In this document: positions 1 through 63,598 of the stretch, piece after piece
Layout: every line of letters begins with the position of its first letter
Numbering within the stretch: the first letter of the stretch is position 1
IMG/VR virus record: IMGVR_UViG_3300009314_000003
Coordinates: 64,001 to 128,000 of that record
DNA: 64,000 nucleotides
DNA from: a virus
Reading direction: 5' to 3' (one strand)
Made by a program: the position numbers and the translations under genes
The notes under the pieces: model-generated
The model's input: the letters and a program-made list of their open reading frames with translations, nothing else
Told to the model about the DNA's origin: nothing
Databases searched by the model: none

Positions 1-3000
1 GGTTGGGGTGCACACCAGAGGGATGCTCATCAAGGCCCTGCCTGGTGGAATATACCGGGACACGCTGTCAACTTTGCCAGGTGGCTTCCAGGATTCCTGA
101 CAATAGACCTGGGTGCTCGCCTGGGCTTCGGCCTGGTTGGTGCGGCTAAAAGGGCTACATCAAATGCTGTTTTTAAGAGTCAACCCCTCCGAAGCCTTCC
201 GGAGATAATTACCAACGCCCGCCGTTACGCCAAAGACAATCTAGATTCCCCAGTCGTAAATCTCATTACCAGCACACTCGCTTCGGTACGTGCCTTCAGT
301 CATTTTGTGGGAGGTAAGACAGATGCCAATAACCAGACTAAGAGATTTGCCGAGCGTAGTTATAAAACTATCAGTGGGTATCGGCGCACAGGGGCTACTG
401 CTAATGAGTATATAACCGAGAACACACGCCGTCTCTTTAAGGATTATAGACGCTTCAAGGCTAAGGCTAAGAGTGACCTGAAGCGGGCCTTATCCACTGA
501 CTATACCAGGACTGGGGCAGAGTTAACTCGCTTATTTGATCCTGATGCTGCAAAGTCATCTCCTATACACATATTCAAGAAAGGGTTTGGCGTTGAGTAT
601 GGAGGTATGAGGGAAATGTCCAGGCATCTGTTTGAGCGCAAGATGCCTCTGGTGGCCAGGTTATCGGGGTTGGAGAGCCTTCGGATGCGCCATCTCAAGG
701 GGATTGGGCAATCCGAGGAGTGGAAACGCATCTTCAGAGTAATTTACAAGGGAATTCAATCGGCTAGGGAATTTGGTGATGCGGGAAACCAGGTTAGAAA
801 ATTAGTCAAGGGTGGATATTCTGAGGGTGGGAAACGTTCCTTTGACGACCTCATTGTAGATTCCAGACTCTTCTTCGATCCCGTGACTAAGGAAGTTCGT
901 AACCTCTCCGGTTTTACCTTTAAGGACATAATTGGCAGGTCCCTACACTATGCCTCTAAGCGCCTCACCTTTAACACACCCCTCGGTAAGATTGATCTGG
1001 TTAGCATCTTTGGCGGACGTGCTGTAGCTAGTTACGGTATGCCCAGTATAGTTCGCCTGGAGCATGGACGTGTACCGACCAAGGCTATTCAACGGTTGTA
1101 TGGTGTAGAGGTATATCCTACCCCAACAGACCCAAGCGCAAAGCAATTTACTCAGGTACTAGCAATAAAGGATAGGAAGAGCGGCTACACAGTCTGGGCT
1201 GATGTATATGGTGGTGATGCAAGTGGTGGAACTGGGCTGGAAGTGGTGGCAAGGAATATGAGTCTTGTCTCCAGTACCGATAGCACGAAGATGATGAGTG
1301 TCTATGCTATGCGGGAGAGTATGTGGCCTCCGCTTGATAAGAATGCACTTAATGAAAGATTTAAGGGTGGGGGTATAACCCCAACAATTAGAAAGTGGCT
1401 GCATAACAAGTTTGACTTGTTTGGGGGAGGAAAGTTTTATCCATCTGTGTGGGAACTTGCTCTACACCATATGCGCGGTGATTCAAGGGTGTGGACTATA
1501 TTTCATCCGGAGGGTCTTCCTGCCAGGGTAGCCAGCGGTATCTACAAGATGAAGGACCTTGCCGCCTCCGGCGGGCAGAAGGCAAGCTATCAGATTCAGT
1601 ATTTGGACGCCGCCTACAGGAAGGCGCGCACAGAAGCAAGTAAGCTGCTCACAAGGGATGATATACTGAGTCGTATATTACGTAAAGCTTATGAGGGAGA
1701 TACCATAAAACTATGGGGCGTTAAGACAGAATTCAAGATTAAGGATATCATTGATGAGAAGATTGTGGAGGACGGCTTACCAGAACCTCTGCGTCTTGTG
1801 AGGGAGATACTTAAAATTGATGAGACTGCATCCGCTGATAGTAGACTCGGGAGAAATCTTAAGCAGATCATAGATGAGTTGACAGATAGGATGCCTGAGA
1901 TGGGCGGTTTTCATAAGTATGTCTCAGAGGGAGGGGTTGGAGAGACAGCAACTGTAAAAGCCAAAAGGTTCCTGGCCGAAAGAGCTATACTACGTGAGGC
2001 GGATACCCTGGGGGCGGCCAGGCAACTAGATACTCCCCACGCCGGTGATACGGTTAAAAATATTGTAGATGATATCCTCGTGGCATTTGATGATCTGGCC
2101 AAGACAAATGCTATAACCACCAAGGACCTGCTGAAGGTTAAGATGGGAATGCAAGGGATAAGATGGGAGCACGAAGTACGCAACCTAGGCAGCCTGAGTG
2201 GAAAGAGTCAGATAACGGGGCGTGGTATTGATAAACTCTTTCAGGCAGTAGGCGAACGGGGCCTCATGGCTAAGGAGTATAAGGACGTTGAATCGTTATT
2301 TGACTTCCTCAGGAAGGCTAAGATGGAAGATCCAGAGCTGTGGGATTCCTACCGGCGTATGACGGGCAAGTTCAAAACCACAATGATGGTTGACTCTCAG
2401 AGACATGCCCTGGAGATGATGTCTGATGTATTTGGGGAGAGCCCTTACCTGCTCTTCGAAGGGGGCCCGATGGGATGGGCCAAGAATGTCTTTTCATGGG
2501 GTTATGATACCTTCGGACGTACTATGGACCTGGTTGGCCTGGGCTGGGATCGAGGACGTTTCCCGAAGTTCATGGGGAAGGATAGTATAGCCGGACTCTG
2601 GACCAAGAGATTCGCTCTCATGGGTGGTGTTGCAGCCGCTTACCAGACGGTAGACACTGTTACTGATACCACCCCCATATTTGCTGGTTCCTTGGCCCAT
2701 GACGAATTAGTCGCTGTTAGACATAAACGGACTGGACTAGTGAGCCTTGTCAAAATTGGTGAGTTTGTTGAAGATGGTAGAGCCGATAATAATCAATTTG
2801 AAGCCTGGACCAACCATGGCGGCAAAATCGGCTGGTATGACATTACCCAGGGCATTAGACATAAGCGTGAGACCACATTAGTGAGGGTTGAGTTAGAATC
2901 CGGTGCCGATCTATTTGTCACGGATAACCACTCTCTATTCACGGGATCGGAGAGCAACCTACAACTTCAAGCGCCAGAAGTTGGGAAGCATATTGTCGCG

Positions 3001-6000
3001 TTAGAGTCGCAATACCCATCAGGGGCAGGTATATCAAGAGTTGACATCAGTGATCTTGTAACGTCGTTGCCAGAGAAGCTGTACGTGGCTGTTGAGGACC
3101 CGTCCTTAAATCGTGGCAACTACAAACTCCGCGCGGATGCAGAGGATATTTGGGGTAGCAACTATGTGAGGTGGCTACGGGACAGGGTAACATATCATAA
3201 AGCTGTTTATAGGACCACCTATGAAGCCTATACGGAGTGCCCAAAGAAAGAGTTCACTAAGATTCGTCACTTTAGATCTCCTGTGAAGATCCCGTCTGGG
3301 TGGGAGCTAACTAGGGAGTTTGGATATGTGTTGGGTATGTTTGCTGCTGAGGGGTGTGCAACTAAGTCTAATGGTAGTGTGTATGGCGTTCTCTTCAGCG
3401 CCAAGGATTATGGTAGTCTTGGCCACAGATATAAAGGCCATATTAGATCAAGGCTCGTCTCTGCACTCAAGACTGTATTTCCAGATGCCAAGATTTCACA
3501 TTCTCACAAGAAAATAATACTCCACGGGTATCTATACTACTGGCTCTTCCATGACGTATTCAAGATGGGCCATGGCGCGTCCAATAAACGCCTCCCGGAC
3601 TTTGCACTGAATGGCCCGGAAGGGTTTAGGAGAGGACTCATTGATGGATATATTGATGGGGATGGATATCAGAAGCAGACCGGCGACACCATCAGACCGG
3701 CCGGTATTGGGAGTACTTCCCGCGAACTCGTCACTCAAGTTTATCTATTACTCAGGATGGAGGGCTGCCAGGTAAAGCTGTCTAGCAGGGAGCCAAGACA
3801 GGGACAAATTATTGATGGTCGCGTTGTTAATGGTAACTATCGAACCTATGCGATTACCATCAGGGATCTACACACAGATTTGTATGATGTATCAAACTCC
3901 AACCATGCTAGAACTATACGAAGTAACAGGGTCTCGTCCGCAATAGCAAGTATGTCCGCATGTGAGGAGCAGCCAGACTTTGTGTATGATATCTCCGTGG
4001 CTGGTGCGGAGAAGTTCATCGCTGGATTTGGTTTCTTGTATGCACACAACACTGCCCTCGATGAGGGGACTACGGTTTTCTTAGCTGACCAGGCCGTAAG
4101 GGCCAGGTTATTCGCCGGTTACGTATATGATATTACAGGCATCACGGATACAATGAAGTATCTTGAGGGTCTTATGCCGAAGAGTACACAAGTTCTGCCA
4201 GGGGCAGCCATGGGTTTCGCTATGGGTGGTGTACCAGGAGCAATTACCGGCGGTATTCTTAATGCCTGGACCCAACCGGTCCTCAAGGAAGGCCCCCTCT
4301 CCTTCCTCTCCCTCTTACCCCCCACTGCCCCATTTGTCTCTGACATGACTAAGAGCTTCAAGGAGCTACAGGATTTATATTCCGGGAGGGAGCTAGAAGC
4401 CGTTAGAAAAGGATCGGGCTGGCCTTTTGGTTCTGTTCCTATTGAGGGTTGCCTCACCGAGAGAACCGAGGTCTTAGTTGCTGACGGTGGTACCACGTCT
4501 ATAAGGGCCATTAAGGTTGGGGACTGTGTTATTGGGCCGGCTGGTCCCGTTCTTGTAACAGCTACCAAGGATCGATACACCACTCCTAGTGAACAACTCT
4601 ACACAATCATCTCAAGATACAACCGATCTGACGAGGTTGAAATTACAGGCAACCATCCTGTACTAGTAGCAGAAGATCCTTTTAGATGCTCTGTTGTATC
4701 CAATGGGACCTGTTCCCCGAGGCGTAACCAGAAGTGTCACAAATGCAGCCATCCGTATTGGCAGTCCTACAAACTCGGCTGGAAGCGGGCCGATGATATT
4801 ACCAGTGATGACTTACTAGCAATACCACGGCGCAGGTTCAATAGCAGCTCCGAACATGTTATCCGGTGGGTGGACTTCCTTGGTGATGATTATAAATACG
4901 TTGGTGGCCACGTCTGGGTTAATAGTAAACTGGGCACTTTTGGCAATGAGGCTCTCAGAGCAATCGTTGACCTGGTCCTGGATGATCTACCACATAAGGA
5001 TTCTGAGAAGCAACGTAGAATTGAGGCGATCGCTACACAGTCTGGCAGGATGCCCAGACAAGTTCGTCAGAAGATGGTAGATGTGCGGGACAGACTTAGA
5101 GATGGATGCCCTCGAGATTGCATTGATTATGTGGATCTTGGTTCCTTGGCAGAATATCTGCCACTCTCCTATGAGACGGGGCGCTTTCTTGGTCTTTACG
5201 CCGCCGAGGGGAGTGTGTGTGATAATGGCACTATATCATTTGCTTTCCACGCCAACGAAATAGAGTATCACCAGTTTGTTGAGTCGTGCATGCGCAGATA
5301 CTTTGGTTCGGACACAGTTACTCATGTGTCGGGCCCACAAACCGCAGGGACAAATCAGTGGGCTGTTCAATGCTTCTCCACACCTATAGCCAGCATCCTG
5401 GGAAGAATGTTCAACCGCGGAGCTTCTAGTAAGGACATCCCGGCCAGGTTGTTTGAGGCGAACGATGATTTCTTGCGTGGGTTTCTGAGGGGACTATTTG
5501 ATGGGGATGGACACCACAATTTGATAAAACCAAGAGTGGAGATGCGCCTGGCCAGTAAGGATCTGATTAATCAAGTTCAGTTGGTACTGGAGCATTTCGG
5601 TGTCGTGGGATTTGTGTCCCAGGTGGACAATAATGGCTTTGATGCTTACGAAATCCTTGTGAGCAGCTCTAATGCCCGTGCCCTACTCCAGCTTATGGAG
5701 GGCGTACATGAAAGCACATTCTACGATAGCCTGCCTGGTAAAGGAGCCTGGGTTTGCGGAGACTTCATCTTCACGGAAGTTCATAAGATTTCATCCAGGT
5801 CATGTCCTGAAGGAACCCATGTATATGATATCGAAGTCGCAGAGGGTGAATCCTTCCGCACAGTTGGACTCCATCTTCATAATTCAAGAATTACAGCATA
5901 CTCTCCTAACTGGTACCCCATGTTGAAGGCTCAGTATAAAGCCACCCCGGCCCTTTACGGTTCCAAGCTTGAGCAGTGGGCCTTTAAGGACCTTCCCTTT

Positions 6001-9000
6001 GTCGACTTCAGCTTTGGTGACCTTATTGACCCCGACTACCTAACCAGGAAACACTATTACGACAGGCCCTATATTTCGTGTCTAACTCCAGGTACCTTAA
6101 TTATAGGCGATAGAATTACAGCCATAGATAAAATCAGGGAAGGCTCACATGTTTATACTAAGTCAGGAGAACTATCAAAGGTTACCGAGGTACATAGAAG
6201 AAATGTAAAAGAGCATATCACCAACATCCGTATTGCTAAACACTCAGAGCCGCTGAGACTTACCTGGAATCATAAAGTGATGGTGATGCAAACTGAAGTA
6301 TGTAGTCATAGACACAACAGCTCTAAGTCTAGACGAGTGTGTAGATTTGGGTTAACAAACAGTGATTGTGTGAAATGTACAAACAAACTTTATAAGAACT
6401 ATGAACTCGGGTGGGTACGAGCTAAGCATATAGAACCTGGGGACATAGTAGTTAAATCCATACCAGATACGTCAGAAATTGTCGAATCAATCAACATAAG
6501 TGATTTTGTGCTAGATTATCCAGTTTATGATGGTTCAGTATATTATGCGCCGAGAGCAAATAAGCTGTCAGCTAAACTAGCTTGGATTAAAGCTCATATC
6601 CCCCAACACAAAGATAATGAGAAGGGAGCACTAAAGAGATTATCTGCTGCTTACGATATACCACTTGGGTATTTATATAATCACTACTATACTTGTAATA
6701 CTAATCAGTGGGAACGTTGGACTATACCAGATGCTCTACCTCTCGATAAGAACTTATTTACCATACTAGGATACTACCTTGCCGAGGGCTCACTAACAAC
6801 CAAAGGGGTTAGTTTCGTCTTTCATGAGAAAGAGTTGAATACATATGTTAAGGAACTAATCAATGCTGCTTCTAATCTTGGATTCAAATCATCGTCGTGG
6901 CGATATAAAGAAGGCTCAAAGGCTATTGAATTAACCATATACAGCGTAATTCTCAGGAAGATGGTAGATAGCTTATGTGGTAGGGCCGAGCAAAAACACA
7001 TTCACTCGTTATTGATGAAGGCCCCGAGGGAGTCCAGAATTGCATTTGTTAGATCCTATATAAATGGAGACGGTTGTTATACGGCCGTAGATAGGGGTAT
7101 TTGGACGGTAACATATACGAGTGTTGTACCTTCAATTAGTTATCAGATCCAGCAAATGTTGTCAACACTTGGTGTGTTTGCTGGTATCCACAAAAGTGAA
7201 TGTCCCCCATATAAGATCAAAATAAATGATAAAGTAAATGGCATATCCTCTGGTGTATACTATATAGGTACGATAAATGGTGTTGAGTGTAGAAAGCTTC
7301 TCGACTTATTTGAGATGGACCATCCACAAACCAATCCACCAGCTCCGAATAGGTGGGGGTGGATGGATAATAAGTTTATTTATTTAGCTGTTAGAAATGT
7401 AGACCGTGAGTATTATGAGGGACCAGTGTATGATATTACAGTTGATGGTGAGCACAACTACCAAACATCATCTGCAATAGTTCATAACTCCGATATTCCA
7501 TTTTTGGAGGTACCTCTAGTAGGACCGGCCCTGGCGGCAACAGCCGGACAGGCATTCCGGGCCATTCACCCCATGACACTTGATCACCCTATGCACAAGG
7601 AGGAGGTGCAGAGGGCTTTGCAGGAGGGCGTGGCCTACAGTTGGCGAGGGGAGGAGGAGCCCGGCTTCGGTCCCAGGTACACTGGTTCCGTGTATACAGA
7701 TGAATCATACAGTCAGGGTCGTATTATGGGGACACTCGAGGGTCGCAGTCCTACGATCCGCAGCAATATGGATGTACGACAGATCATCTCCGAGCAGATT
7801 TACAGGGGGTGGATTGAGCCGGCAGGTCTGGCTGGCTTCTGCCTACCAGAGGGATCTGAGGTTATTACTTATGGGGGCCTTTATAAGAAGGTGGAGGATA
7901 TTAATCTCGGTGATAAACTTATCACCCATAGGGGCCACCCTGGTAAAGTCACTAGGGTATATAAGAGATTTGTGGATGAGGATATTATTGAGCTTAGTGT
8001 TTCCCACTATGCCGATGTCCCTGTCCAATTGACGGGGGAGCATCCAGTCTTGGTAGCAAAAACGAAGCCCTGCCTGAAAACCCACGACAAACAACATTGC
8101 CTACCACTTCATGGATCTTCTAGGTGTTATTGTTGTCCAAGAGAGTTCAACACCAATCTGGAGTGGGTTGTGGCGAAGGATATTAAGGAGGGTGATTTTG
8201 TTGTTCAACCATCCTCTATAGGCCTTCCACATAGCGGTCTTTTGGATTTAGGTAAGATGGATGAGGTGGTAAATTATAAAAGGGTAAATAACAACAGCCG
8301 GTGCTCAAGAGATAGGGATCACAAATACTTTGTTATCGAGCATGACAATATTAGGTGGTGGAATGGTTCCAAGAAACGATTTCCAAGATACTTGGAGCTA
8401 ACCAAGGATCTTGGGTTCTTCTTCGGTGTATATTTGGCCGAGGGTAGTTTGGATCCTTCTCCCAATAAAGTAAATAAACACAACAGGGGCCCGGAGAGAA
8501 TACAGTTCGCCCTTCATAAAGATGAAACAGATGCCATAGGAAGACGCCTTATTCGTATTGCTCGGGAGTACTTCAATATTGATCCATCTAAATGCCACAT
8601 TACACCCAACCACGGAAATGGCATAAGATTAAGACTCCAATCTCATGCTCAGCTGGCTATAACTATGCATCTCCTTCTAGGATCAAAGGAGAACAAATAT
8701 CTACACCCATCCCTATCCAACGGTCCTACTAAGTTTATTATTGGTTTATTGGAGGGGCTACTAATCGGAGACGGTTGCGCATTTAACAATGAGAATTTAA
8801 CCACTATAACCCCTACAATTAGCCTAACAACCACTGCTTATGGTATTGTCCAGGCAGTACGTTATGCAATGACTAGAATAGGGCTACATCCTCCAGTAAC
8901 AACCAGGGATGATAGTATAGTTGGGAGAAAAACAATAATTAATAGTCACGTAGCGATCCATAAGCTCCCATCATATAGACTGCGGTTATCTGGGTATACA

Positions 9001-12000
9001 GCTGTTAAGCTAAATCAGTTAATACACCTCTACTCTGGGGACGGGGATTTCAATTATAAGCCTATACGCAAGAAGGCCCCAGAGGTTTTTACCTTATATG
9101 ATTACACTTATTTAAAGGTTAAGAAAGTAGTTAGCAAGAGATATAAAGGTCGTGTATATGATTTCGAGATTGGTGGGGATCATAGCTTTATGACTACTGC
9201 TTGTATAGTTCATAACTGTACCAGTGCCCTGTTATGGGATTCTGATGAACCATTCGTAGATGAGCCAGTCTTTGCCCCGGCTAGTGAGATGGACTCAATG
9301 GGACGTGCTTACTGGGATATGAATATTGGTGATCCATTCTTAATTGGCGAGGGTATACGTAGAATGATCCCCCGGCCCAGAACAAGTTATGAGAAGGTTG
9401 ATGACTTACTCAGAAACGATATGCCAGGATGGCTTCCTGAGAACTTTCGGCGTGGCGACCCCTTTTGCATTTCTCCGGATACTATGGTAGAGGTTTATGA
9501 TGGTCTGATTCGGGCGGATGGGGTCAAGGAGGGTGATTTGATTCGTACTATTAGGGGCCGGTATTTCCCTATTAACAAGATTGCTGTAAGAGAGGTAGAT
9601 GAACCGGTATACAAGATTAAACTTGCTGGTGTGGAATATATAACCACCGCAACAGCTGAACATCCATTTAGAATTCATCCTGGAAAATGGGCACTAGCTG
9701 AGGATTTAAGGCCAGGTATGTATGTTGCTTACCCGCGGCTGAAAATAGATTTCCCCACAGAGTTAGAAATTCTAGGTAGAAGGTTTCAGCTTTCCGGCCC
9801 ACTGGCTTACATACTAGGTAATGTACTTAAGTATGGCCGAGTGGGTGATTTGTCCCTGGCTGTTACAGGTGTGCCTGAGGGGGACAGTTTTGCCCGGACG
9901 GTACAAAACATATTAGGAATTAAACTTAGCAAGCAGGGTCATAGCAGAAGTAAAATATTGCTTAGTCTCTTCAAGGATCTTAATCTAAGGCTCCCTCCCA
10001 TGTTTTATGGGGGCCCATTAAATATATTCGCCTCATTCTTAAAACCATTTACGGACGAGCCTCTACCGGGCCGCCGATTCATTACCCTAACCCTACCCAA
10101 TATGTCATTAGCATACCAGGTATGGAATTGTCTAATACAACATGACGTCATAGGACAAATCGATGGATGCCAGATAACAATACCAAGATGGATGCTTGTG
10201 GGTTTCAATAAGAATGCTGTTCTCATAGACTATTTATGTGGAGATAGGGAGATATTACGCTACGGAGATATAAGTACCATACCCTATAAGAAACACGAAA
10301 GGGGTAATGATGATCACCTCTATATAAGAGTGGATGAGGTTGAGGAAATACATTATAAAGGCCCGGTCTATGGTTTTGAGGTTGATAGGGATAATACTTT
10401 TTGTGTTGCGGGCTGTATAAGTCATAACACCCGTATTCCCAGGGGCGAGGCCTTACTCCCTGGGCCGGGGTACGAATCAATGTTTAACATGGTTCTTGAC
10501 TTCCCCACCGGGGCCAGTAGGCTTGGTTATTCAGCCTATGAACAGGCCTTGCATATGATTGGCCTTAAAGATCCCCTCTCCGAGGATGAGGAAGAGATCA
10601 TGAGTGAGGGAACTGCAATCCACAAAATGGTACAGGCTCAGCTGACAAAGGAGGGGGTACTAAAAAAGGTTGAGGCATATGTAACAGATCCCTACAACCG
10701 TGTTTCATCCTATGTTGACGGTGTTATGGGGTCCGCCTACGGCGACATTCCGCTGGAGATTAAGAGCATCTCCAGTAAAGGTTTTCAGCAACTTACCCGG
10801 CCGAAGCACAAACATAACATCCAGTTGAATGCTTACCTGCATATGATGAAGGCACGTGAGGGTAAAATCTTGTATGTTAATAGGACTGACCCATCTCAGA
10901 CTAAGGAATTTAAGGTCCGTTATGACCCACGTCTCTGGGCGCAGACCCTGGCTGAATTGGAGACTGCTAGGGAATATGCCAGTCAGTTCCTGGGTGAGGG
11001 ATATGGCTCCTCCACGAATGGCTACTCATATGTAGATAGAATGCAGGTACTCATGAATGCCGCCCCCTTTTCCACAGAGTATAGAGAGGTAGCTCAAATT
11101 GTAGGGCAGCAGTCTGAGCTCGGACTCTTATCTGATGAGCAGGAGAACCACCTGAAGAGAATGAGGCGTTATCACCAGAACATGATGAGGCGCCATGAGC
11201 TCTATCCACATCGTTTCAAATGGAATCAAATTCTCGATCCGGATCCACAGTACCAGCAACTTAATAGTAATGAACTAATCAAGGCAGCTGCTGAATATCC
11301 ACTCCCGGCCAGAGTAGCTGGTTCGATCTGGGAATACATGACCCATCTCCGTTCGCCACTTCATAGCAAACTTATTGGCCAATACTCCCCCGAGGAACAG
11401 TATGAGAGGACTGTGTTATATGGGAGTACACACAAGAATTGGGCGAATCCCATATCCGATTTCGCTGAGCCTTATATGCGCGGACTTAAGTCTGTAACTG
11501 ATCCGGTACAGGGGGCTCTCTCTTTTGGCCTGGGTGGGTCCCTCTTCGGCGGACTACCTGGGGCCATCCTGGCTGGTACGTTTGGAGCTGTGTATGGCTC
11601 GGCTCATGGTATATACCGAGCAGCTACTGACAGCCGCTATGTGCCGGAGAGATTTGAGGAGATGCAGGAAATGGAGGAGTATTTTGATCGCCTCAAGTAC
11701 TATCGCTCCCATACACTGTACAAAGCCACCGGAGACAGACGTTTCCTGGATGAGATGGGCCGAACTGCAGTTGGTTGGTCAGCAAAAACTCGTGGCGGGA
11801 GGATGACCAGACAACGGAGGGAGGATGATACCAAGCGGAGCCCGTACGCCAATTATGCCAGGCAGCCAACAATATATGATATTACAGGTAATTCATCCAT
11901 ATACACCAGGATGATGAATTGGATGGGCGGTGTATTACCACCAGAGGGCATGACCCAATCCTCTCGCTGGGCTAATCAGTCATACTCTACAGCTGGTGGC

Positions 12001-12669
12001 ACAAACAGGGGCCATATGTCCCCCTGGTCAGGTCAGGATACAGAACGTGACTTGGGATTCAGTGCTAATGAGGAAAACCTGCTTGATTATAGTGGCGCTT
12101 ATGCTGCTATGCCTTACTGGGACAGACCCTTCTTCAACGCCTTTCTAACAACTCCTTATGAAAAGAGGGAAGATATCCTTGGGACGGTGGACAGAACCTT
12201 GGCTAGTATGTTACAGGCAGCCTGGGGTCACGGTGAGCCGGATATTGAGGGTATTGGCAATTACTTTGAGGACCACTATCAACCGCCCGCCGGTCATCCT
12301 ATAATGCTTCCGGGGGCTGAGTTTGAGGACTACAAATATGAGACCATAGATCAGGCTGGCCTGGCTGCTCATGACTTTGGTCTTGGCTGGAGAGATCAGC
12401 TGCGAAGAATTCAATCAAGCCCCATAGATATTAAACCCGTTAACATTAATGCTGAAGGCCCATCGAAGAAAGGCCTATCCCTGGATGCCGGACAAATTAA
12501 GCAATCTATGCACCAGATACTTGCTAGACTAGGTTACCAATCCACCCCTGTCAAGGTGTCAACAACAGAGTCTCTTACCGATTCAGTCTCTCTACGTGTA
12601 AACATCAAGAGGGACTCTACCAATCAAATTATTAACCTACATACAGAGTCAATGCGTTATGGCGGATAA
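1..12669 (+). CDS. Giant virion/ejection (tape-measure-like) protein precursor with five inteins and a C-terminal RecB/Cas4-like nuclease domain; 5'-truncated by the window
   Basis: Frame of the 307..12669 ORF has no stop back to base 1 (GWGAHQRD...), so the true start is upstream. Five intein start/HN-end pairs; Gly-rich hydrophobic segments (VLPGAAMGFAMGGVPGAITGGIL; GALSFGLGGSLFGGLPGAILAGTFGAVYG); GTAIH...VDG...EIK...QLNAY nuclease motifs; lies upstream of baseplate genes. Confidence 0.75.
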   Translation, partial: GWGAHQRDAHQGPAWWNIPGHAVNFARWLPGFLTIDLGARLGFGLVGAAKRATSNAVFKSQPLRSLPEIITNARRYAKDNLDSPVVNLITSTLASVRAFSHFVGGKTDANNQTKRFAERSYKTISGYRRTGATANEYITENTRRLFKDYRRFKAKAKSDLKRALSTDYTRTGAELTRLFDPDAAKSSPIHIFKKGFGVEYGGMREMSRHLFERKMPLVARLSGLESLRMRHLKGIGQSEEWKRIFRVIYKGIQSAREFGDAGNQVRKLVKGGYSEGGKRSFDDLIVDSRLFFDPVTKEVRNLSGFTFKDIIGRSLHYASKRLTFNTPLGKIDLVSIFGGRAVASYGMPSIVRLEHGRVPTKAIQRLYGVEVYPTPTDPSAKQFTQVLAIKDRKSGYTVWADVYGGDASGGTGLEVVARNMSLVSSTDSTKMMSVYAMRESMWPPLDKNALNERFKGGGITPTIRKWLHNKFDLFGGGKFYPSVWELALHHMRGDSRVWTIFHPEGLPARVASGIYKMKDLAASGGQKASYQIQYLDAAYRKARTEASKLLTRDDILSRILRKAYEGDTIKLWGVKTEFKIKDIIDEKIVEDGLPEPLRLVREILKIDETASADSRLGRNLKQIIDELTDRMPEMGGFHKYVSEGGVGETATVKAKRFLAERAILREADTLGAARQLDTPHAGDTVKNIVDDILVAFDDLAKTNAITTKDLLKVKMGMQGIRWEHEVRNLGSLSGKSQITGRGIDKLFQAVGERGLMAKEYKDVESLFDFLRKAKMEDPELWDSYRRMTGKFKTTMMVDSQRHALEMMSDVFGESPYLLFEGGPMGWAKNVFSWGYDTFGRTMDLVGLGWDRGRFPKFMGKDSIAGLWTKRFALMGGVAAAYQTVDTVTDTTPIFAGSLAHDELVAVRHKRTGLVSLVKIGEFVEDGRADNNQFEAWTNHGGKIGWYDITQGIRHKRETTLVRVELESGADLFVTDNHSLFTGSESNLQLQAPEVGKHIVALESQYPSGAGISRVDISDLVTSLPEKLYVAVEDPSLNRGNYKLRADAEDIWGSNYVRWLRDRVTYHKAVYRTTYEAYTECPKKEFTKIRHFRSPVKIPSGWELTREFGYVLGMFAAEGCATKSNGSVYGVLFSAKDYGSLGHRYKGHIRSRLVSALKTVFPDAKISHSHKKIILHGYLYYWLFHDVFKMGHGASNKRLPDFALNGPEGFRRGLIDGYIDGDGYQKQTGDTIRPAGIGSTSRELVTQVYLLLRMEGCQVKLSSREPRQGQIIDGRVVNGNYRTYAITIRDLHTDLYDVSNSNHARTIRSNRVSSAIASMSACEEQPDFVYDISVAGAEKFIAGFGFLYAHNTALDEGTTVFLADQAVRARLFAGYVYDITGITDTMKYLEGLMPKSTQVLPGAAMGFAMGGVPGAITGGILNAWTQPVLKEGPLSFLSLLPPTAPFVSDMTKSFKELQDLYSGRELEAVRKGSGWPFGSVPIEGCLTERTEVLVADGGTTSIRAIKVGDCVIGPAGPVLVTATKDRYTTPSEQLYTIISRYNRSDEVEITGNHPVLVAEDPFRCSVVSNGTCSPRRNQKCHKCSHPYWQSYKLGWKRADDITSDDLLAIPRRRFNSSSEHVIRWVDFLGDDYKYVGGHVWVNSKLGTFGNEALRAIVDLVLDDLPHKDSEKQRRIEAIATQSGRMPRQVRQKMVDVRDRLRDGCPRDCIDYVDLGSLAEYLPLSYETGRFLGLYAAEGSVCDNGTISFAFHANEIEYHQFVESCMRRYFGSDTVTHVSGPQTAGTNQWAVQCFSTPIASILGRMFNRGASSKDIPARLFEANDDFLRGFLRGLFDGDGHHNLIKPRVEMRLASKDLINQVQLVLEHFGVVGFVSQVDNNGFDAYEILVSSSNARALLQLMEGVHESTFYDSLPGKGAWVCGDFIFTEVHKISSRSCPEGTHVYDIEVAEGESFRTVGLHLHNSRITAYSPNWYPMLKAQYKATPALYGSKLEQWAFKDLPFVDFSFGDLIDPDYLTRKHYYDRPYISCLTPGTLIIGDRITAIDKIREGSHVYTKSGELSKVTEVHRRNVKEHITNIRIAKHSEPLRLTWNHKVMVMQTEVCSHRHNSSKSRRVCRFGLTNSDCVKCTNKLYKNYELGWVRAKHIEPGDIVVKSIPDTSEIVESINISDFVLDYPVYDGSVYYAPRANKLSAKLAWIKAHIPQHKDNEKGALKRLSAAYDIPLGYLYNHYYTCNTNQWERWTIPDALPLDKNLFTILGYYLAEGSLTTKGVSFVFHEKELNTYVKELINAASNLGFKSSSWRYKEGSKAIELTIYSVILRKMVDSLCGRAEQKHIHSLLMKAPRESRIAFVRSYINGDGCYTAVDRGIWTVTYTSVVPSISYQIQQMLSTLGVFAGIHKSECPPYKIKINDKVNGISSGVYYIGTINGVECRKLLDLFEMDHPQTNPPAPNRWGWMDNKFIYLAVRNVDREYYEGPVYDITVDGEHNYQTSSAIVHNSDIPFLEVPLVGPALAATAGQAFRAIHPMTLDHPMHKEEVQRALQEGVAYSWRGEEEPGFGPRYTGSVYTDESYSQGRIMGTLEGRSPTIRSNMDVRQIISEQIYRGWIEPAGLAGFCLPEGSEVITYGGLYKKVEDINLGDKLITHRGHPGKVTRVYKRFVDEDIIELSVSHYADVPVQLTGEHPVLVAKTKPCLKTHDKQHCLPLHGSSRCYCCPREFNTNLEWVVAKDIKEGDFVVQPSSIGLPHSGLLDLGKMDEVVNYKRVNNNSRCSRDRDHKYFVIEHDNIRWWNGSKKRFPRYLELTKDLGFFFGVYLAEGSLDPSPNKVNKHNRGPERIQFALHKDETDAIGRRLIRIAREYFNIDPSKCHITPNHGNGIRLRLQSHAQLAITMHLLLGSKENKYLHPSLSNGPTKFIIGLLEGLLIGDGCAFNNENLTTITPTISLTTTAYGIVQAVRYAMTRIGLHPPVTTRDDSIVGRKTIINSHVAIHKLPSYRLRLSGYTAVKLNQLIHLYSGDGDFNYKPIRKKAPEVFTLYDYTYLKVKKVVSKRYKGRVYDFEIGGDHSFMTTACIVHNCTSALLWDSDEPFVDEPVFAPASEMDSMGRAYWDMNIGDPFLIGEGIRRMIPRPRTSYEKVDDLLRNDMPGWLPENFRRGDPFCISPDTMVEVYDGLIRADGVKEGDLIRTIRGRYFPINKIAVREVDEPVYKIKLAGVEYITTATAEHPFRIHPGKWALAEDLRPGMYVAYPRLKIDFPTELEILGRRFQLSGPLAYILGNVLKYGRVGDLSLAVTGVPEGDSFARTVQNILGIKLSKQGHSRSKILLSLFKDLNLRLPPMFYGGPLNIFASFLKPFTDEPLPGRRFITLTLPNMSLAYQVWNCLIQHDVIGQIDGCQITIPRWMLVGFNKNAVLIDYLCGDREILRYGDISTIPYKKHERGNDDHLYIRVDEVEEIHYKGPVYGFEVDRDNTFCVAGCISHNTRIPRGEALLPGPGYESMFNMVLDFPTGASRLGYSAYEQALHMIGLKDPLSEDEEEIMSEGTAIHKMVQAQLTKEGVLKKVEAYVTDPYNRVSSYVDGVMGSAYGDIPLEIKSISSKGFQQLTRPKHKHNIQLNAYLHMMKAREGKILYVNRTDPSQTKEFKVRYDPRLWAQTLAELETAREYASQFLGEGYGSSTNGYSYVDRMQVLMNAAPFSTEYREVAQIVGQQSELGLLSDEQENHLKRMRRYHQNMMRRHELYPHRFKWNQILDPDPQYQQLNSNELIKAAAEYPLPARVAGSIWEYMTHLRSPLHSKLIGQYSPEEQYERTVLYGSTHKNWANPISDFAEPYMRGLKSVTDPVQGALSFGLGGSLFGGLPGAILAGTFGAVYGSAHGIYRAATDSRYVPERFEEMQEMEEYFDRLKYYRSHTLYKATGDRRFLDEMGRTAVGWSAKTRGGRMTRQRREDDTKRSPYANYARQPTIYDITGNSSIYTRMMNWMGGVLPPEGMTQSSRWANQSYSTAGGTNRGHMSPWSGQDTERDLGFSANEENLLDYSGAYAAMPYWDRPFFNAFLTTPYEKREDILGTVDRTLASMLQAAWGHGEPDIEGIGNYFEDHYQPPAGHPIMLPGAEFEDYKYETIDQAGLAAHDFGLGWRDQLRRIQSSPIDIKPVNINAEGPSKKGLSLDAGQIKQSMHQILARLGYQSTPVKVSTTESLTDSVSLRVNIKRDSTNQIINLHTESMRYGG
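2689..4050 (+). mobile_element. Intein 1 (454 aa) with LAGLIDADG homing endonuclease, Ser-initiated
   Basis: FAG|SLAHDELV start, block B VTDNHSL, LGMFAAEG and LIDGYIDGDG, block F VYDISV, end YAHN|T. Confidence 0.93.
4450..5883 (+). mobile_element. Intein 2 (478 aa) with LAGLIDADG homing endonuclease
   Basis: IEG|CLTERTEV start, ITGNHPV, LGLYAAEG, FLRGLFDGDG, VYDIEV, end LHLHN|S. Confidence 0.95.
6079..7488 (+). mobile_element. Intein 3 (470 aa) with LAGLIDADG homing endonuclease
   Basis: YIS|CLTPGTLI start, LTWNHKV, LGYYLAEG, FVRSYINGDG, VYDITV, end IVHN|S. Confidence 0.95.
7840..9216 (+). mobile_element. Intein 4 (459 aa) with LAGLIDADG homing endonuclease
   Basis: AGF|CLPEGSEV start, LTGEHPV, FGVYLAEG, LLEGLLIGDG, VYDFEI, end IVHN|C. 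Confidence 0.95.
9466..10428 (+). mobile_element. Intein 5 (321 aa) with degenerate homing endonuclease
   Basis: DPF|CISPDTMV start, ATAEHPF, VYGFEV, end ISHN|T. LAGLIDADG positions decayed (LAYILGNVLKYG; FLKPFTDE). Confidence 0.92.
10500..10980 (+). other. RecB/Cas4-like PD-(D/E)xK nuclease domain within the giant protein
   Basis: GTAIH (10609), YVDG (D at 10717), LEIKS (E at 10756, K at 10762), HNIQLNAY (Q at 10822), ILYVN strand. No Fe-S cysteines. Boundaries approximate. Confidence 0.85.
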
Positions 12670-15600
12670 AGAGAAAGATACAAGAGACATACTGATATCC
12701 TGGTCCCTAATTCTCCCTACCCTCCTGGGGATTGTAAAGGCTAATAAGAATCTACCTCGCCTGGCAGAGCTACAGGATCTACTTATCAGATACCTCAGGG
12801 GTAGGGTATCTATGTCTGATGTTATTTCAGGCCGTAAGGCTATACGGGCCGTATTAACTAAGGACGTGGAGCTTGAGAAGTTTGTCGAAGCCCGTAAGCA
12901 AGCATGGCAGGATCATCTCACCGGCAAGACTGGAAAGGAATTTAGTTCAAACATATCTGCTAAGTTTGTTGAGGACATAGAGGGCGGAAAAGATTTAGTT
13001 GAGACCAAAATTGATATCCACACCAGGGATACTCTGGCAAGCAGAATCGATGTTGTTAGGGAAAATCTGGGGAAACGGATTGAGGATATCAAGAATAGAA
13101 CTGGTATCAAGACCTCTGTATTGAATAGGAAGGACGCTATCAAGGCAAGGTCCACCTTTGACTTATTTGGAGCGCAGGTATGGTATGATATGTTTGGCAG
13201 TACAGGTCCTATATCTGGGGGTTCTGCCTGGGATATGATGGATGCACATGCGTGGTTCAGGGCCTATAAAACTTCAGGGCATATATCATTTACCGGGAAC
13301 ACACAGGACCTGGAGGTGAATAGTATTAGAAGTCGACTTTCGTCGTTTGATACATCACCCGAGAGTGCTGATGTAGACATACTTAAGAAATATGTTACTG
13401 AGCTGGAGAGAATTGAAAAGCAATTTGAGGCTCCTCAGCTAAAACCCATAAGTGGCAGCAGAGTCAAAGATCCCATATGGACCTCAATTATTGGCAACAG
13501 AGTGGCAACCTCGAATGGTAGGATTACTACTATTGGCGGAAAGGAGGTTATGGGGCTTGGTGCTATTGAGAGTAGTATTCAACAGAGCTTACTTGGCGAG
13601 TTGGAGCAGAACCTCGCACCACCAAAGCAGGGATTCCAAACCAGATTTGAGGATATATTCTATAACTATTCCCCCCAGACACAAAGATTTTATGATGTTG
13701 TATTATCACCTCAGTCACAAGCTAAGGAAGTTGCTAAGGTATTCAGATCGATGTCTGAACACCTGGGGAGATTGAAACGTGGTGGGGCAAATACTGTGGC
13801 TGCTAAGCTTGCGAAGGATGAGAGCACACAACGGGCCCTGACAAAGGTTATAAACAACATGGAGCTGCGACTGGAGGTTACTGAGGAGCACGCCTTAGGA
13901 CGTCCCTTCAAGTACTTTAAGTTCGTACTCGATTCCTCAGGGGCCGAGGTAGATAGGAGTATAAAGGTAGGGGATAAGACACTAGACAAACTGGTTGGTC
14001 GTATGGAGTTCTACTTCCCCACCGTCCAGGAAGGTTATTTAATTACACGCCCCGGCGTTCATCCTCTAACATCTCCCGCCACATGGCCAGCAGGGGCTAA
14101 GGGGATATCCCAGTTCATGTCTATACCAAGTACCGTAGCCTTGGATATAACTCAGCACATGCCAAAGTTCTATAATGAAATGATGGATGCCATGCTCAGA
14201 GGTGATAGGGCCCAAAACTATCTTATGAGACGCATTAATCATGCCATGGAACTGGCATCTCCTGCTAAAGGCACCGTAGGAGATATCTTTCGTATAGCCG
14301 CCGCCAAACATGTCGAGGGTAGAATATATGCTGGGTTGGAAGATTCCAGGATGTATATAAACGCCCTAAAGGCAAAGTCGGCTGTGGAAAACGTTAAAAG
14401 GATGCACACAACAGGTAAATCGCGTATCCTGGTATTTGATACTGAGTATGGTAAGGAAGGCCTTCTCTCCAGATCTTTGGGGGTACAGCGTATGGCACGG
14501 GACCCGGGCGTAAAGGTCTGGTCCATTGGCTATCAGATCCTTGATTATGAGGCCTCTTCAGGGAGGATGACGGGTATTATGGGTAAACCAGGCAAGCTTA
14601 TGATAAAGCCCAAAAACTGGAATAGTATCAAGAGTAATGTGGAGCAGTGGCTACGCAGGCAATTGCCCGATGAGAAAGCTGTGGAGAAGATAATTAATAA
14701 GATTCAGGAGGGTGAAGGACTACGGGAAGCCCTAAAGAAGCTGGTTGATGATATAAGGACCTATGGAAAGAACGATATATATGTCTCTGGTTTTGCTAGT
14801 ATGGATGCGGATTTGAAGAACCTGGCCCAGATGATTGATGCTGAATTCAGTAAGAAGGAGGCCTTAGAATGGAAGACGCAACTGAGTTATCTCCTTGATG
14901 TAGATATGGAACACGGGGCCCGTAGACAAATTGATGTTATGCGTCTTTACCAGGGCTTTTCCTTTGCCAGACCTGAGACAGCTATATCAAATGCCGCAGT
15001 ATTTGAAAGCCTGTATGGTATTGATTCAACGCGCTTCGGTGAGCTATTGACAATGGTAAAGGGGAAGAAGCAGGTGGAGCTAAAGGTCGCAGCGAAGAAG
15101 TTGTGGAGCAGCAGTTCAGAAATAGCCAAGGCCGAGCACGCATTCAAGACCTTTGAGAATATGAAGCTTGGGGTGACGGAGTATCATTCGCACATGGCCG
15201 AGTTTGACTGGACAATACACGCCATGAGTATGAAGAGGTTGTTTGGCCGCGTCATGGGCCCCAATACACTCGATCGTGAGGCTCTGGAACGCCTGTCAAT
15301 TGCTGCTGAGATACAACGTAACAGGTTAGCCGGTTACAAATCACCCTGGCACTACGTAACAGATACCATTCTGAATCCTCTCTTCGCCTCTACTTACTCA
15401 GTAAGTTCGTTTGATGGGGCCGGTACAAGTTATTCAGATCCCAATATGGCCCAACTCTCTCTCCATGCTATGCCTAAGGCACAGGCCGCGCGGATGATTG
15501 GGAGTTTACTGAACCCGGATCGTGTTTTACCTGGTGGTTTACTACATAATCTCCTCCGCCAGAAGTATCAATCCTTCTCAGGGCATATCCTATCTGTTAA

Positions 15601-18600
15601 TACAGGCCTCATGTTCAAGGATATGCACGCAGACATGACCCAGGTCATGAAGGAGGCAGACCTGCCTTTCCTAGGTATTGGTGAAGTAATGGGTACTCCC
15701 CACACCACCGCAATGCGTCAGCACATAATTAATACCTATATGGGCAGCTACGGCAATTATGCAAGGAACAATCTTAGAGTAACCCTAGGAGACAGAGCTG
15801 CGGAGGCGGCCATGAAAAAGACTACGATGCACATGACCGATAGTATCATAGGTCTTGTGGCTTACCTACCGGATAGGCATGGTTACACACACGATGCCGC
15901 CCTAAGAGTTAATAAGGCCATATTCGAATCAGTTAATGTACTTGGTCATGGAGACCGACCAGGCATCCGGAATATAGAATTGGAGATACCAATTCCTGAT
16001 GAATGGAAGAACAAGAGTGGTATGGCCATAAAAGATGTCCTGAAGAGACAAGGTTTTCACCCTGCCATACAAAGGCTTGCACGTGAATATGGAGGAAGAG
16101 TCTCCGGTATAGTTGACAAGAGGTGGGAATATTTCAAGATGGATGTGCTGGGTGAGGGGGATATAAGTGACCGCATCATCCACCCAGGTGATGAACTAAT
16201 TAAGGAGGTACAGGGTAGACGTGAATATCTCCGGTTGACTGATGTAGGTAGGAAATATGATAAGAAGTACCCTGCCGCTGTGGTTGGTATGAAGGTTGAT
16301 CTCGAACAAAATAATATTATAATTACCGTCAGTGAACACTCTCGCCCCATGCTGACCACCAAAATATCAACCGGATCTACTAAAACACTGTGGGGAACTG
16401 CCAGCTCAAAGGTGGAGAATGTAAATACAAAGGGCCGTGCTGTGGGTGGTGGTATGCTCTTGTTGGAGGGGTCAATAAAATCCCTAAAGGACTATGGTGC
16501 TATTGTCATGGCACAAATCGGACGTGTATTGAGGCATGTGTACAGCAGTAACCTCGGGCCTCTTGGGCAGGAGGGAGCTATTAAAAAGGCTTTGACACCT
16601 CTTCTCGGCAAGGACCTGGTTGAGGATATAACATTCCAGGATAACAGGCTGTTGACTACAGGAGGTAGGTCTATAGTCATCAGAAAACCTGAGCTGGGAA
16701 ACAAGATACAGACCCATCTCTCCCGTCACAGTGCCTCCGTACCCAAATTATATGACATGGTGGAGGCAGCTGGTATAACTATCGGTGAGGTGCGTAAGTT
16801 GTTCAATATCATAACGAGTAATATACTGGAGAGTGAAACAGAGAGGGAGAAGCTCTTTAATCAATTAGGCAGGGACCACCTGAACTCTCTGGAGAGAGAG
16901 AAGGACAGGTTACTAGGTAAAATAGCAACAGCCGGTGAGGGGCGAAGTAAGAAAGAGATTGAGAGGAGTAAGAACATGGTCTCGAGACAAATTAGGAGTT
17001 GGAAGGCCTTTGTCGAGAGACAGGATGAATCTGGGACAGCCCTATTTGATTTTATGGCTACCAAACCTTTTGCGGATAGTGCTGTACTAACCTCACATAA
17101 TGCCATAATTGCTCTCGAGAGCTTACATATCGTAGAATCTGGGCCCATCGACTTTATGAGGTCCTTTGACAGGATGGAGAGCTTCTACGGTTTTCCACTG
17201 GGCCCACAGAAATTAAGTCCGGCGGATGCTAATGTCCTGGAGGATGCTGTCCGGCGTGCCGCTGGAGAGGATATAGCAGCACTGGAAATAATGGTCGAAA
17301 TGGACAAGATGCGCGGCTTTGCCTATATAAGTAAAAAGACAGGCAGACCTATAATCAGGGAATCCATACAAGCTGTTAACCTGGCTATGAAATTTCTTAG
17401 AGAAGGCAGGCCGGCCCTGGCAGCGGCCCTTGGTGAGGAGGGGACTACCAAGATATTGAATTATGAGGCTGTGCAACAGCTAGCAGAGAAATCTGGCTTC
17501 ATAGAGCTTATGTCCACCAAGGATATGGAATCTGTTCTGACAAAGCTGGATGCTATTACCGATGAGAGACACGTAGGACGAAAGGTGGCTGACGCCCTGG
17601 TGGATATGGGCATCCTCGGCGCGAAGGAGGGTATGAGTGAGCACGACCTGATGAAACTATTAAATGACTTTGGTATCTCGGGACCAGATGTAGAATACTT
17701 TACAGACGTGATAAACCAGGACAGGATTCACCTTGTGGACAAGACTCTCCTGAATGAGATCAAAATGTTCCGCACTACAAAGGGTAGTATGAAGGACATA
17801 ACCTTGCTGGAAGTTCAAAATACCAGCAGCGCAATCAAGGCTTTGAAAGCTCGTGTGGGAAAGAGTAGGGCAGATGTAAAGAGAGTAGAGAAGCTTGAGG
17901 GATGGCTGAAGAATACAGGTCGGACTAGCTTGTATAAGGAAGGCTTCACCTTTGATCTTAGGGAACATCTATTTGGCTATCTCATGGACAACCCGAATAT
18001 GGCGAAGGGAAAGACAGATATACTTCTACGGCAGGTATCTAACTACCTAGAGCGTATGGCGAAGAGGGGATCCCTGCGGGTCGGTGCAGATTTCATTCCC
18101 ATACCAAAGGCTGCCGTACTGATGTCTATCCTCCAATCCTCTAACCTAAGTAACCTCCTGGGAGGAAAAAATGCCTTCCTTGGAGGGGCCGCAGTGTCTA
18201 CCCTGGAAGTAATGAGAGATGTGATGCAGTTCAATCAAGCAACCAAAGATATTGCTGGTCTTGGTGATGGTGCAAAAAAATCTGTGGAGGAGTTAATTGA
18301 GAACTGGACGTCTAAGGTACAACAGCTGGAGCATTCCATAGGAGTGCTGCAGGAACGGGTAATTGGGCCCTCCGTATCTCAGCTCATCAAGAAGGCCTTT
18401 ACCCTATATGCCCCCACCTCATACGGCAAGTTGTTACACCCCCTCCATCTGCTTCCTACACTCCAGAATAAGTTGTACGGAGCTCCTGGCGGCCTGGAGA
18501 AGGCCCTGAGTAACTTTCCTAAGTCCGAAGTTATCAAGATAAATAATAAGGTGTTTGCAGAGATAGATATTAAGAAGGCCTTTGCTAATCTAGTTGATGC

Positions 18601-20565: not shown

Positions 20566-20751
20566 ATGCATATTACTATAGAGGTTGACCTAAATAATAT
20601 TCCCTATGATGTTGATGTCACTGAGATTATTGGCTATCTACAATCATATCTTCAAGAGACATACCAGGTTGATGTGAATATGATGGTGGATGACTACGAC
20701 TTCGTCAATAAGATTGACCTGGGCCGGCAGATGAAGGCTATGAAGCGTTAA
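20566..20751 (+). CDS. Small hypothetical protein (61 aa)
   Basis: Fills the gap exactly; starts 2 nt after the upstream stop and has a TAATG overlap with the next gene. Confidence 0.65.
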   Translation: MHITIEVDLNNIPYDVDVTEIIGYLQSYLQETYQVDVNMMVDDYDFVNKIDLGRQMKAMKR

Positions 20752-63397: not shown

Positions 63398-63598
63398 TTA
63401 CTTCTTCTTTGGTTCTTCTGGATTAAGAGCTAGGTACTTGCTTATAAAAGCAACCATGTTAGCCAGCCAAATATCATCCTTAGTTGAAGGAGTTATTTTG
63501 ACTACTATACTGGCAACTGCAACGATATAGATATATATCTCTGCAATATTTGCCCAATTAACCTTAAACCAGGAAAGCAAATCAAATATGAAACTCAT
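63398..63598 (-). CDS. Holin-like small membrane protein (66 aa)
   Basis: NW...IYIYIVAVASIVVKITPSTKDD...LALN with basic C-terminus; AGGAG upstream on the minus strand. Confidence 0.6.
   Translation of the reverse strand: MSFIFDLLSWFKVNWANIAEIYIYIVAVASIVVKITPSTKDDIWLANMVAFISKYLALNPEEPKKK

Follow-up and report, generated by a model that had tools for sequence, protein, structure and literature searches.

Five inteins in the spliceosomal protein Prp8 of Anaeramoeba ignava have been called remarkable, the previous maximum for a single protein being four (PMC10710043). The ribonucleotide reductase of Trichodesmium erythraeum carries four inteins (Liu et al. 2003, cited in PMC10710043), and haloarchaeal MCM has four neighbouring intein sites (PMC10643990). 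Among actinobacteriophages, a survey found tape-measure proteins and Cas4-family exonucleases to be intein hosts, with six or seven inteins in the most intein-rich genomes (bioRxiv 10.1101/2025.01.02.630785). Here we compared these systems with a 64,000-nucleotide (nt) stretch of viral DNA, positions 64,001 to 128,000 of the IMG/VR record IMGVR_UViG_3300009314_000003 (hereafter the window), in which one gene carries five predicted inteins and encodes a protein resembling gp145 of Bacillus phage 0305phi8-36. We consider it highly probable that these are selfish homing inteins lodged in the conserved core of a gp145-like tail-module protein.

The inteins themselves are canonical; what is notable is the load, the host, a virion protein of the tail module, and the large unannotated family that they expose. 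As in A. ignava Prp8, five inteins share one polypeptide; Prp8 is a eukaryotic spliceosomal protein, whereas the five inteins described here lie within 398 extein residues of a phage tail-module protein, a relative of which (P0115) apparently carries six. Five equals the published per-protein maximum that we found, and P0115, if its predicted count holds, would exceed it. In the Trichodesmium reductase and haloarchaeal MCM, several non-allelic inteins likewise share the conserved motifs of a single gene, and in all three cases neighbouring inteins are expected to influence each other's homing. Those two hosts are cellular enzymes of replication or nucleotide metabolism, whereas the gp145-like family has at least about 25 sites, with some inteins only 5 amino acids (aa) apart. 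The actinobacteriophage inteins are also class-1 elements with LAGLIDADG endonucleases, residing in a tail-length/tail-lumen protein and in Cas4-type nucleases; in contrast, one gene here has five, the 148-kb genome has eight, and the host family is unrelated by sequence.

The intein-bearing open reading frame (ORF) begins with an ATG at position 63491 of the whole record (G000, 147,988 bp), 510 nt upstream of the window start. Frame 1 of the window is uninterrupted from 1 to 12669, and the whole 13.2-kb frame contains no stop codon or frameshift. The precursor has 4392 aa and is reduced to 2210 aa by in-silico splicing, the five inteins summing to 2182 aa (51.7% of the 4222 aa visible within the window). 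The 4392-aa product is recorded identically from 17 contigs, which rules out an assembly chimera.

With boundaries placed by splicing motifs, all five inteins were located on the plus strand (window coordinates; a slash marks the splice junction). Intein 1 (2689-4050; 454 aa, residues 897-1350 of the window-frame protein) runs from Ser1 to HN/Thr+1 at site A (PIFAG/TALDEG). Inteins 2 (4450-5883; 478 aa; site B3, VPIEG/SRITAY), 3 (6079-7488; 470 aa; GC 0.389; site C2, RPYIS/SDIPF) and 4 (7840-9216; 459 aa; GC 0.418; site D, GLAGF/CTSALL) all start with Cys1, end in HN and are followed by Ser+1, Ser+1 and Cys+1, respectively. Intein 5 (9466-10428; 321 aa), from Cys1 to HN/Thr+1, occupies site F2 (GDP[FY]/[ST]). 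A preliminary description of the window had reported five inteins at 2689-10428, and our motif-anchored boundaries reproduced its lengths, spacers and +1 residues exactly.

A five-way alignment revealed Ser (intein 1) or Cys (inteins 2-5) at position 1 of block A, T-x-x-H in block B of all five (TDNH, TGNH, TWNH, TGEH and TAEH) and the terminal HN of block G in all five, ahead of the +1 nucleophiles T, S, S, C and T. Block F reads VYD in inteins 1-4 and VYG in intein 5, the orthologue consensus of which has Ala there. Judged by these motifs, the five elements are canonical class-1 inteins that keep the catalytic splicing residues. Pfam matched Intein_splicing to five stretches of the whole protein (E=4e-42) and LAGLIDADG_3 to four (E=1e-36); scanned singly, inteins 1-5 matched Intein_splicing at E=7e-8, 2e-7, 2e-11, 7e-9 and 2e-9, and inteins 1-4 matched LAGLIDADG_3 at E=3e-8 to 1e-13, matches much stronger than chance would give. 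Both LAGLIDADG motifs are intact in inteins 1-4, each helix ending in an acidic residue (..AEG(C/S), ..DGDG/IGDG). In intein 5 the acidic residues are lost, the motifs are degenerate (LKYGRV and PGRRF) and the Pfam scan gave no endonuclease match; on the last two grounds its endonuclease is judged dead. We infer that all five inteins would splice out and that inteins 1-4 would home actively. A Cys-rich insert (CxxC..CxxC or C..C..CxxC) after block B is common to inteins 2-4 (approximately 4720-4800, 6350-6440 and 8100-8190); inteins 1 and 5 lack this insert, a possible DNA-recognition element of the zinc-ribbon type.

The junctions were confirmed against intein-free proteins. As the preliminary description had proposed, we spliced the protein in silico and searched phage proteins, and found it colinear with gp145 of 0305phi8-36 and with CDS0026 of Moorella phage MTATph1, both intein-free, with alignments running across junctions 2-5. 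Against the intein-free IMG/VR homologue L014, one 863-column segment (33% identity) spanned all five junctions. When the extein fragments were aligned separately to the intein-free homologues L014, L015 and L013, they abutted to the residue, without gap or overlap, so the boundaries are exact. The exteins between the inteins measure 133, 65, 117 and 83 aa, all on the plus strand. Extein 2 (4051-4449) has the motif Y(L/M)EGLMP, a Gly-rich hydrophobic segment and VRKGxGW; extein 3 (5884-6078) reads PNWY...YGS...DP.Y...KHYYDRPY; extein 4 (7489-7839) contains a variable loop of low AlphaFold2 confidence; and extein 5 (9217-9465) reads S..R.YWD...G...E..RR..PRPR...N.MP.W.P...GDPF. The N-extein (1-2688, plus strand; 896 aa visible) is poorly conserved and basic, with a hydrophobic Gly-rich segment near its N-terminus, and tblastn against phage records found no match to it. 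In the C-extein (10429-12669, plus strand; 746 aa plus stop), a nuclease domain is accompanied by a second conserved stretch, a Gly-zipper hydrophobic segment and a C-terminus that is also conserved. In the spliced product, hydrophobic Gly-rich segments fall at residues 22-40, approximately 1114-1136 and 1827-1845.

The nuclease is the part of the host that can be assigned to a known type. Its PD-(D/E)XK core (10570-10983, plus strand) carries the motifs GTAIH, YVDG, LEIKS and QLNAY, which are conserved across the family and correspond to the catalytic D...ExK with an upstream GxxxH and a downstream QxxxY; it has no cysteines. The PHROGs Cas4/exonuclease family matched window-frame residues 3524-3661 (E=7e-20), approximately 50 aa past intein 5, and overall the domain starts approximately 20-50 aa after that intein. 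PDB profile searches with the conserved core and with the whole family gave the Cas4 structures 4ic1 and 4r5q as the sole meaningful matches; the whole-family profile also returned designed helical proteins with insignificant E-values. NCBIfam TIGR00372 (Cas4) scored 34 bits on the window's C-extein against a cut-off of 65. Given this sub-threshold score and the lack of cysteines for an Fe-S cluster, the domain is predicted to be an exonuclease-type PD-(D/E)XK nuclease and not Cas4 proper. It thus differs from Cas4 (SSO0001, PDB 4ic1; Pcal_0546, 4r5q), lambda exonuclease (3slp) and LHK-Exo (3syy) in having no Fe-S cysteines, and, unlike these, it is embedded in a virion protein of approximately 2000 aa, behind a region of approximately 400 aa without a recognised family.

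Structure prediction joined this nuclease to the intein-bearing core. AlphaFold2, applied to the 641-aa conserved core of L014, reached a pLDDT of 85.1 and a pTM of 0.85 with a 61-row alignment (pLDDT 63.9 with 31 rows), and the intein-bearing core and the nuclease fell within one confident model. The predicted model has the PD-(D/E)XK fold of the RecB/Cas4/lambda-exonuclease branch. Its Foldseek and VIA-align matches came mostly from the nuclease domain: model residues from approximately 402/440 to 617 align with known nucleases, including MGME1, RecE and the AdnAB nuclease at lower scores. In model numbering, the insertion sites fall between residues 39 and 40, 161 and 162, 226 and 227, 337 and 338, and 419 and 420. 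Site 5 therefore adjoins the nuclease core on its N-terminal side, within range of some exonuclease structural alignments, and sites 1-4 fall in the approximately 400 aa preceding the nuclease. That region matched no family in Pfam, NCBIfam or PDB sequence profiles; the intein-free family members gave nothing meaningful in Pfam (E<=0.1) or NCBIfam (E<=0.05), and the ESM Atlas gave no match of 0.9 or more and no informative family.

These results bear on the proposal, made from the sequence at the outset, that the invaded region is a strongly conserved, uncharacterised domain rather than a known enzyme. The core is conserved and most of it (approximately 400 aa) has no family; in the model, however, it is joined to a known nuclease type. 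Intein 5 lies approximately 20-50 aa before a Cas4/lambda-exonuclease-type nuclease and the other sites lie in the familyless region, which goes halfway towards the match to a known enzyme family that the preliminary description had named as its own refutation. Given this connection to a known nuclease type, in sequence and in the model alike, site 5 at least is an ordinary kind of intein target. By motifs and model, then, the host is predicted to be at least partly a nucleic-acid enzyme. Over 501 columns the 641-aa core has a structural neighbour, BFVD A0A6J5MAW2 from an uncultured Caudovirales phage, that bears the name 'Large polyvalent protein associated domain-containing protein'. The name hints at a link to polyvalent injected proteins; LPD Pfam families had no match in five family members at E<=0.1, and in the paper on polyvalent proteins (Iyer et al. 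2017, PMC5512222) neither inteins nor Cas4 nor tape measures are mentioned.

The identity of the host was established by homology and gene order. A tblastn search with the C-extein matched ORF145 (gp145, ABS83703.1) of 0305phi8-36 (E=3e-16), and blastp aligned the spliced product with gp145 in four colinear segments (E=1e-28 to 2e-9; approximately 25-29% identity). The gp145 record is annotated as 'virion structural protein; identified by mass spectrometry'. The protein shares the PD-(D/E)XK motifs and likewise stands after the chaperones gp143/144 and before gp146/gp147; it differs in being intein-free, 1930 aa long and from a Bacillus phage, and its function is described no further than virion structural. 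The preliminary description had taken the host for a structural protein, which fits its homology to a virion protein verified by mass spectrometry; the nuclease was missing from that picture.

The order of the neighbouring genes resembles that of 0305phi8-36: a tail sheath (gp139-like), a tube paralogue (gp141-like), a gp142-like gene and a 140-aa gp143/144-like chaperone precede the gp145-like gene, which is followed by a 2634-aa ORF in the place of gp146, a gp147-like hub with a lysin domain, and baseplate genes. IMG/VR relatives keep the trio of an ORF of approximately 180-200 aa, the gp145-like gene and an ORF of 2500-2640 aa. The last of these always follows the gp145-like gene (12659-20563 in the window, 13324-20829 in L014, 17293-25218 in L005); despite the equivalent position, blastp detects no similarity between it and gp146 of 0305phi8-36. 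Further downstream, a 2378-aa ORF (window 20751-27887) has four segments of homology to gp147, the baseplate hub of 0305phi8-36, along with an endolysin-type domain (PHROG 20474, E=1.5e-61). The likeliest role of the mature host is that of an internal tail protein or ejection protein, which would bring the nuclease into the cell together with the DNA.

That the host is itself the length-determining tape measure of the tail, or perhaps one of two such rulers, and not a separate carrier of an ejected enzyme, seems to us unlikely, although the idea deserves serious attention. The gene directly follows chaperone-like genes, the usual tape-measure position; its N-terminal approximately 1000 aa are poorly conserved, and the family profile matches only designed helical-repeat proteins there; the protein has Gly-rich hydrophobic segments; and rulers with enzyme domains are known. 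However, in 0305phi8-36 the tape measure was assigned from tail length to the next gene, orf146, with the chaperone genes 'one gene removed' (Hardies et al., PMC2147016), and orf145 is the intervening gene. Moreover, the conserved C-terminal approximately 1100 aa, with the 641-aa core in one confident model, are unlike a simple extended ruler.

We surveyed the gp145-like family for inteins beyond the window. A HMMER scan with the L014 core as query returned 1544 cluster representatives at E<=1e-3 and 385 at E<=1e-30, most family members having approximately 1900-2200 aa with the core near residues 1000-1650. A search for related loci with the single C-extein found none, and one with an 18-sequence alignment found 16. 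Hidden Markov models (HMMs) of the N- and C-terminal splicing blocks, built from 24 clean examples and run on 177 homologues, detected at least one intein in 66 of them, among which the window protein (P0095) has five. P0115 (4920 aa, from a JGI metagenome, source name 'intein/homing endonuclease') has six predicted inteins, a count that rests on block HMMs and canonical boundaries; Pfam confirms its Hint/intein and LAGLIDADG content, with only three Intein_splicing stretches above the per-stretch threshold. P0093 has four mini-inteins of 144-246 aa without endonucleases, its Hint/intein content again confirmed by Pfam. Tandem inteins five extein residues apart occur in P0006, P0029 and P0093 (HN/SGDPY/C and HN/SPYQG/C).

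Projecting all junctions of the 177 homologues and four IMG/VR loci onto the spliced protein gave 28 coordinates, or at least about 25 sites once neighbours within one residue were merged, spanning roughly 1050 aa with neighbouring inteins 5 to 133 aa apart. Site A is also occupied in P0115 (a 449-aa Ser1 intein), site B3 in P0093 (a 144-aa mini-intein) and site C2 in P0060, P0082 and L018; site F2 is occupied in 39 of the homologues examined, and site D so far only in the window protein. None of the family sites falls within the nuclease catalytic motifs; several closely precede the nuclease core and one closely follows it. The sites had been expected to lie in conserved sequence, and they do: windows around them average 2.52 bits against 1.82 ± 0.14 at random positions, and none of 10,000 random draws was as high, a figure that overstates significance because the sites cluster. 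Four of the window's five sites lie above median conservation, site 5 at the 97th percentile. The gp145-like family has been invaded by inteins unusually often, and in the literature on gp145 and on intein-rich phage tail proteins we found no description of it as an intein host.

The distribution of inteins on an extein tree (99 core sequences, inteins removed) separated intein 5 from the other four. The F2 intein required 5 changes, compared with 27.6 when labels were shuffled (none of 500 shuffles gave so few), and the window protein belongs to a supported clade whose 26 rows are all F2-positive. Inteins at non-F2 sites required 17 changes against 20.1 with shuffled labels and are thus essentially scattered. 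The nearest relatives, P0002 (61% identical in the core) and P0003, have only the F2 intein in common with the window. F2 orthologues are 28-34% identical to intein 5, and the adjacent C-extein reaches 53%. At only 22-26% mutual identity, inteins 2, 3 and 4 did not originate as recent copies of one another inside this gene, and they have no close kin among the inteins that the genome carries in its ribonucleotide reductase and terminase. GC content is 0.440 in the inteins and 0.499 in the exteins, with 0.389-0.427 in inteins 3-5. Taken at face value, these patterns indicate that intein 5 is old, clade-bound and fixed, with a dead endonuclease, and that inteins 1-4 look younger and seemingly active as homing elements. 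Scattered non-F2 inteins with intact endonuclease motifs, beside a fixed intein with a dead one, amount to an ordinary homing cycle.

Two +1 residues differ from the intein-free state. At site D (7840-7842 and 9217-9219) the window allele has Cys+1 (GLAGF/CTSALLW) where intein-free homologues have Ile, Leu or Ala (e.g., GLPGFITSA.LW), and at site B3 it has Ser where they have Gly, Asn or Asp. Such changes would be expected if an intein and the extein sequence beside it are co-converted, and the Cys+1 of site D looks like an extein change imported in this way. In principle, it could form a disulfide with Cys1 of intein 4.

Under the preferred reading, the phage would be a 0305phi8-36-like marine myovirus, and the gene, in its tail module between the tail-assembly chaperones and a giant gene at the tape-measure position, would encode a gp145-like protein as a 4392-aa precursor. 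Each intein would excise and join its flanks by an acyl shift at Cys1 or Ser1, transesterification to the +1 Ser, Thr or Cys, and Asn cyclisation, to leave the 2210-aa protein. Inteins 1-4, as two-motif LAGLIDADG endonucleases with both acidic catalytic residues, would be recent invaders, which fits the scatter of non-F2 inteins on the family tree, and intein 5, its endonuclease decayed, would persist only by still splicing. Inteins may cluster here given that endonuclease targets would survive best in the most constrained coding sequence, and a giant virion protein, probably of low copy number, may withstand the yield lost cumulatively over several splicing steps. Once spliced, the host would consist of Gly-rich hydrophobic segments, the uncharacterised conserved approximately 400 aa and the Cas4/lambda-exonuclease-type nuclease.

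Several observations weigh against this explanation. The Asp of block F is present in most class-1 inteins, and intein 5 and its orthologues carry Gly or Ala in its place. The window around site A is weakly conserved family-wide, at the 25th percentile. The first approximately 400 aa of the core may belong to a known family. Only the gene order, the hydrophobic segments and a homologue of 25% identity, annotated from mass spectrometry, suggest that the host lies in the tail lumen and is ejected.

Other genes of the same genome carry inteins as well. The class II (B12-dependent) ribonucleotide reductase (L020; record positions 139786-143976, minus strand, outside the window) has two, CLPKDT...VHN/S and CVTGDT...VHN/C, both with endonuclease domains, and the large terminase (Terminase_6N; L021; 36136-38424, plus strand, also outside the window) has a mini-intein at approximately residues 157-294. 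Together with the five in the gp145-like gene, the 148-kb genome thus holds eight inteins, and endonuclease genes are present in its tail-tube gene region. We count the reductase and terminase inteins as support for the selfish-element explanation.

A regulatory function, in which the inteins have been co-opted as conditional switches (e.g., redox or temperature) that gate maturation of the tail protein or virion assembly, appears improbable. Pairing of Cys1 and Cys+1 can form a regulatory disulfide in other inteins, and intein 4 has both residues; intein 5 is retained clade-wide despite its dead endonuclease; and five serial reactions would in principle give a steep gate. However, the homing cycle is expected to end in just such a state, with the intein fixed and its endonuclease dead, and loss of the intein then needs a precise deletion. 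The scatter of non-F2 inteins on the tree, together with the absence of inteins 1-4 from P0002 and P0003, shows these four to be dispensable. No conserved feature was seen beyond the splicing blocks, and the presence of inteins in the reductase and terminase fits general parasitism better than a dedicated switch. The earlier suggestion that five splicing events could gate virion maturation thus found no support. A broader version, that gp145-like proteins of long-tailed myoviruses are the most intein-invaded family seen (at least about 25 sites, up to six inteins per polypeptide, tandems 5 aa apart), that their core is a new essential DNA-handling module injected via the tail, and that serial splicing is a rate-limiting tail-assembly checkpoint in the heaviest-loaded lineages, is in our estimate a long shot.

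It is very improbable that the elements are Hint or bacterial-intein-like autoproteolytic domains that cut a polyprotein into pieces: Pfam gave weak matches to Hint, Hint_2 and Vint beside Intein_splicing, but all five elements end in HN followed by Ser, Thr or Cys, their flanks rejoin colinearly, residue for residue, with intein-free homologues, and four of the five carry homing endonucleases. Least credible of all is a decaying pseudogene overrun by mobile elements and yielding no functional protein, for although inteins take up more than half of the ORF, an extreme load, the 13.2-kb frame is open, the splicing residues and nuclease motifs are intact, 17 contigs encode the protein without any difference, relatives conserve both the gene and its synteny, and no second, intein-free copy was seen in a six-frame scan for intein termini or among the retrieved homologues.

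The invaded core evidently matters, and most of it is uncharacterised. Inteins mark the most tightly constrained positions of proteins indispensable to a genome, and here they flag as essential a family of 1544 representatives without functional annotation, found in marine and Firmicute-infecting myoviruses, and point to the motifs VRKGxGW, KHYxDRPY, GLxGF and GDPY-x-K..GE.RLPG beside a virion-associated nuclease. The family also offers a natural test bed for homing interference among crowded inteins and for the number of splicing steps that one protein tolerates, with a fixed intein whose endonuclease is dead beside apparently active invaders, and with +1 residues unlike those of intein-free alleles (Ile to Cys at site D). 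Overall, for phage biology, these findings strengthen the argument that enzymes are loaded into the tail module in this lineage.

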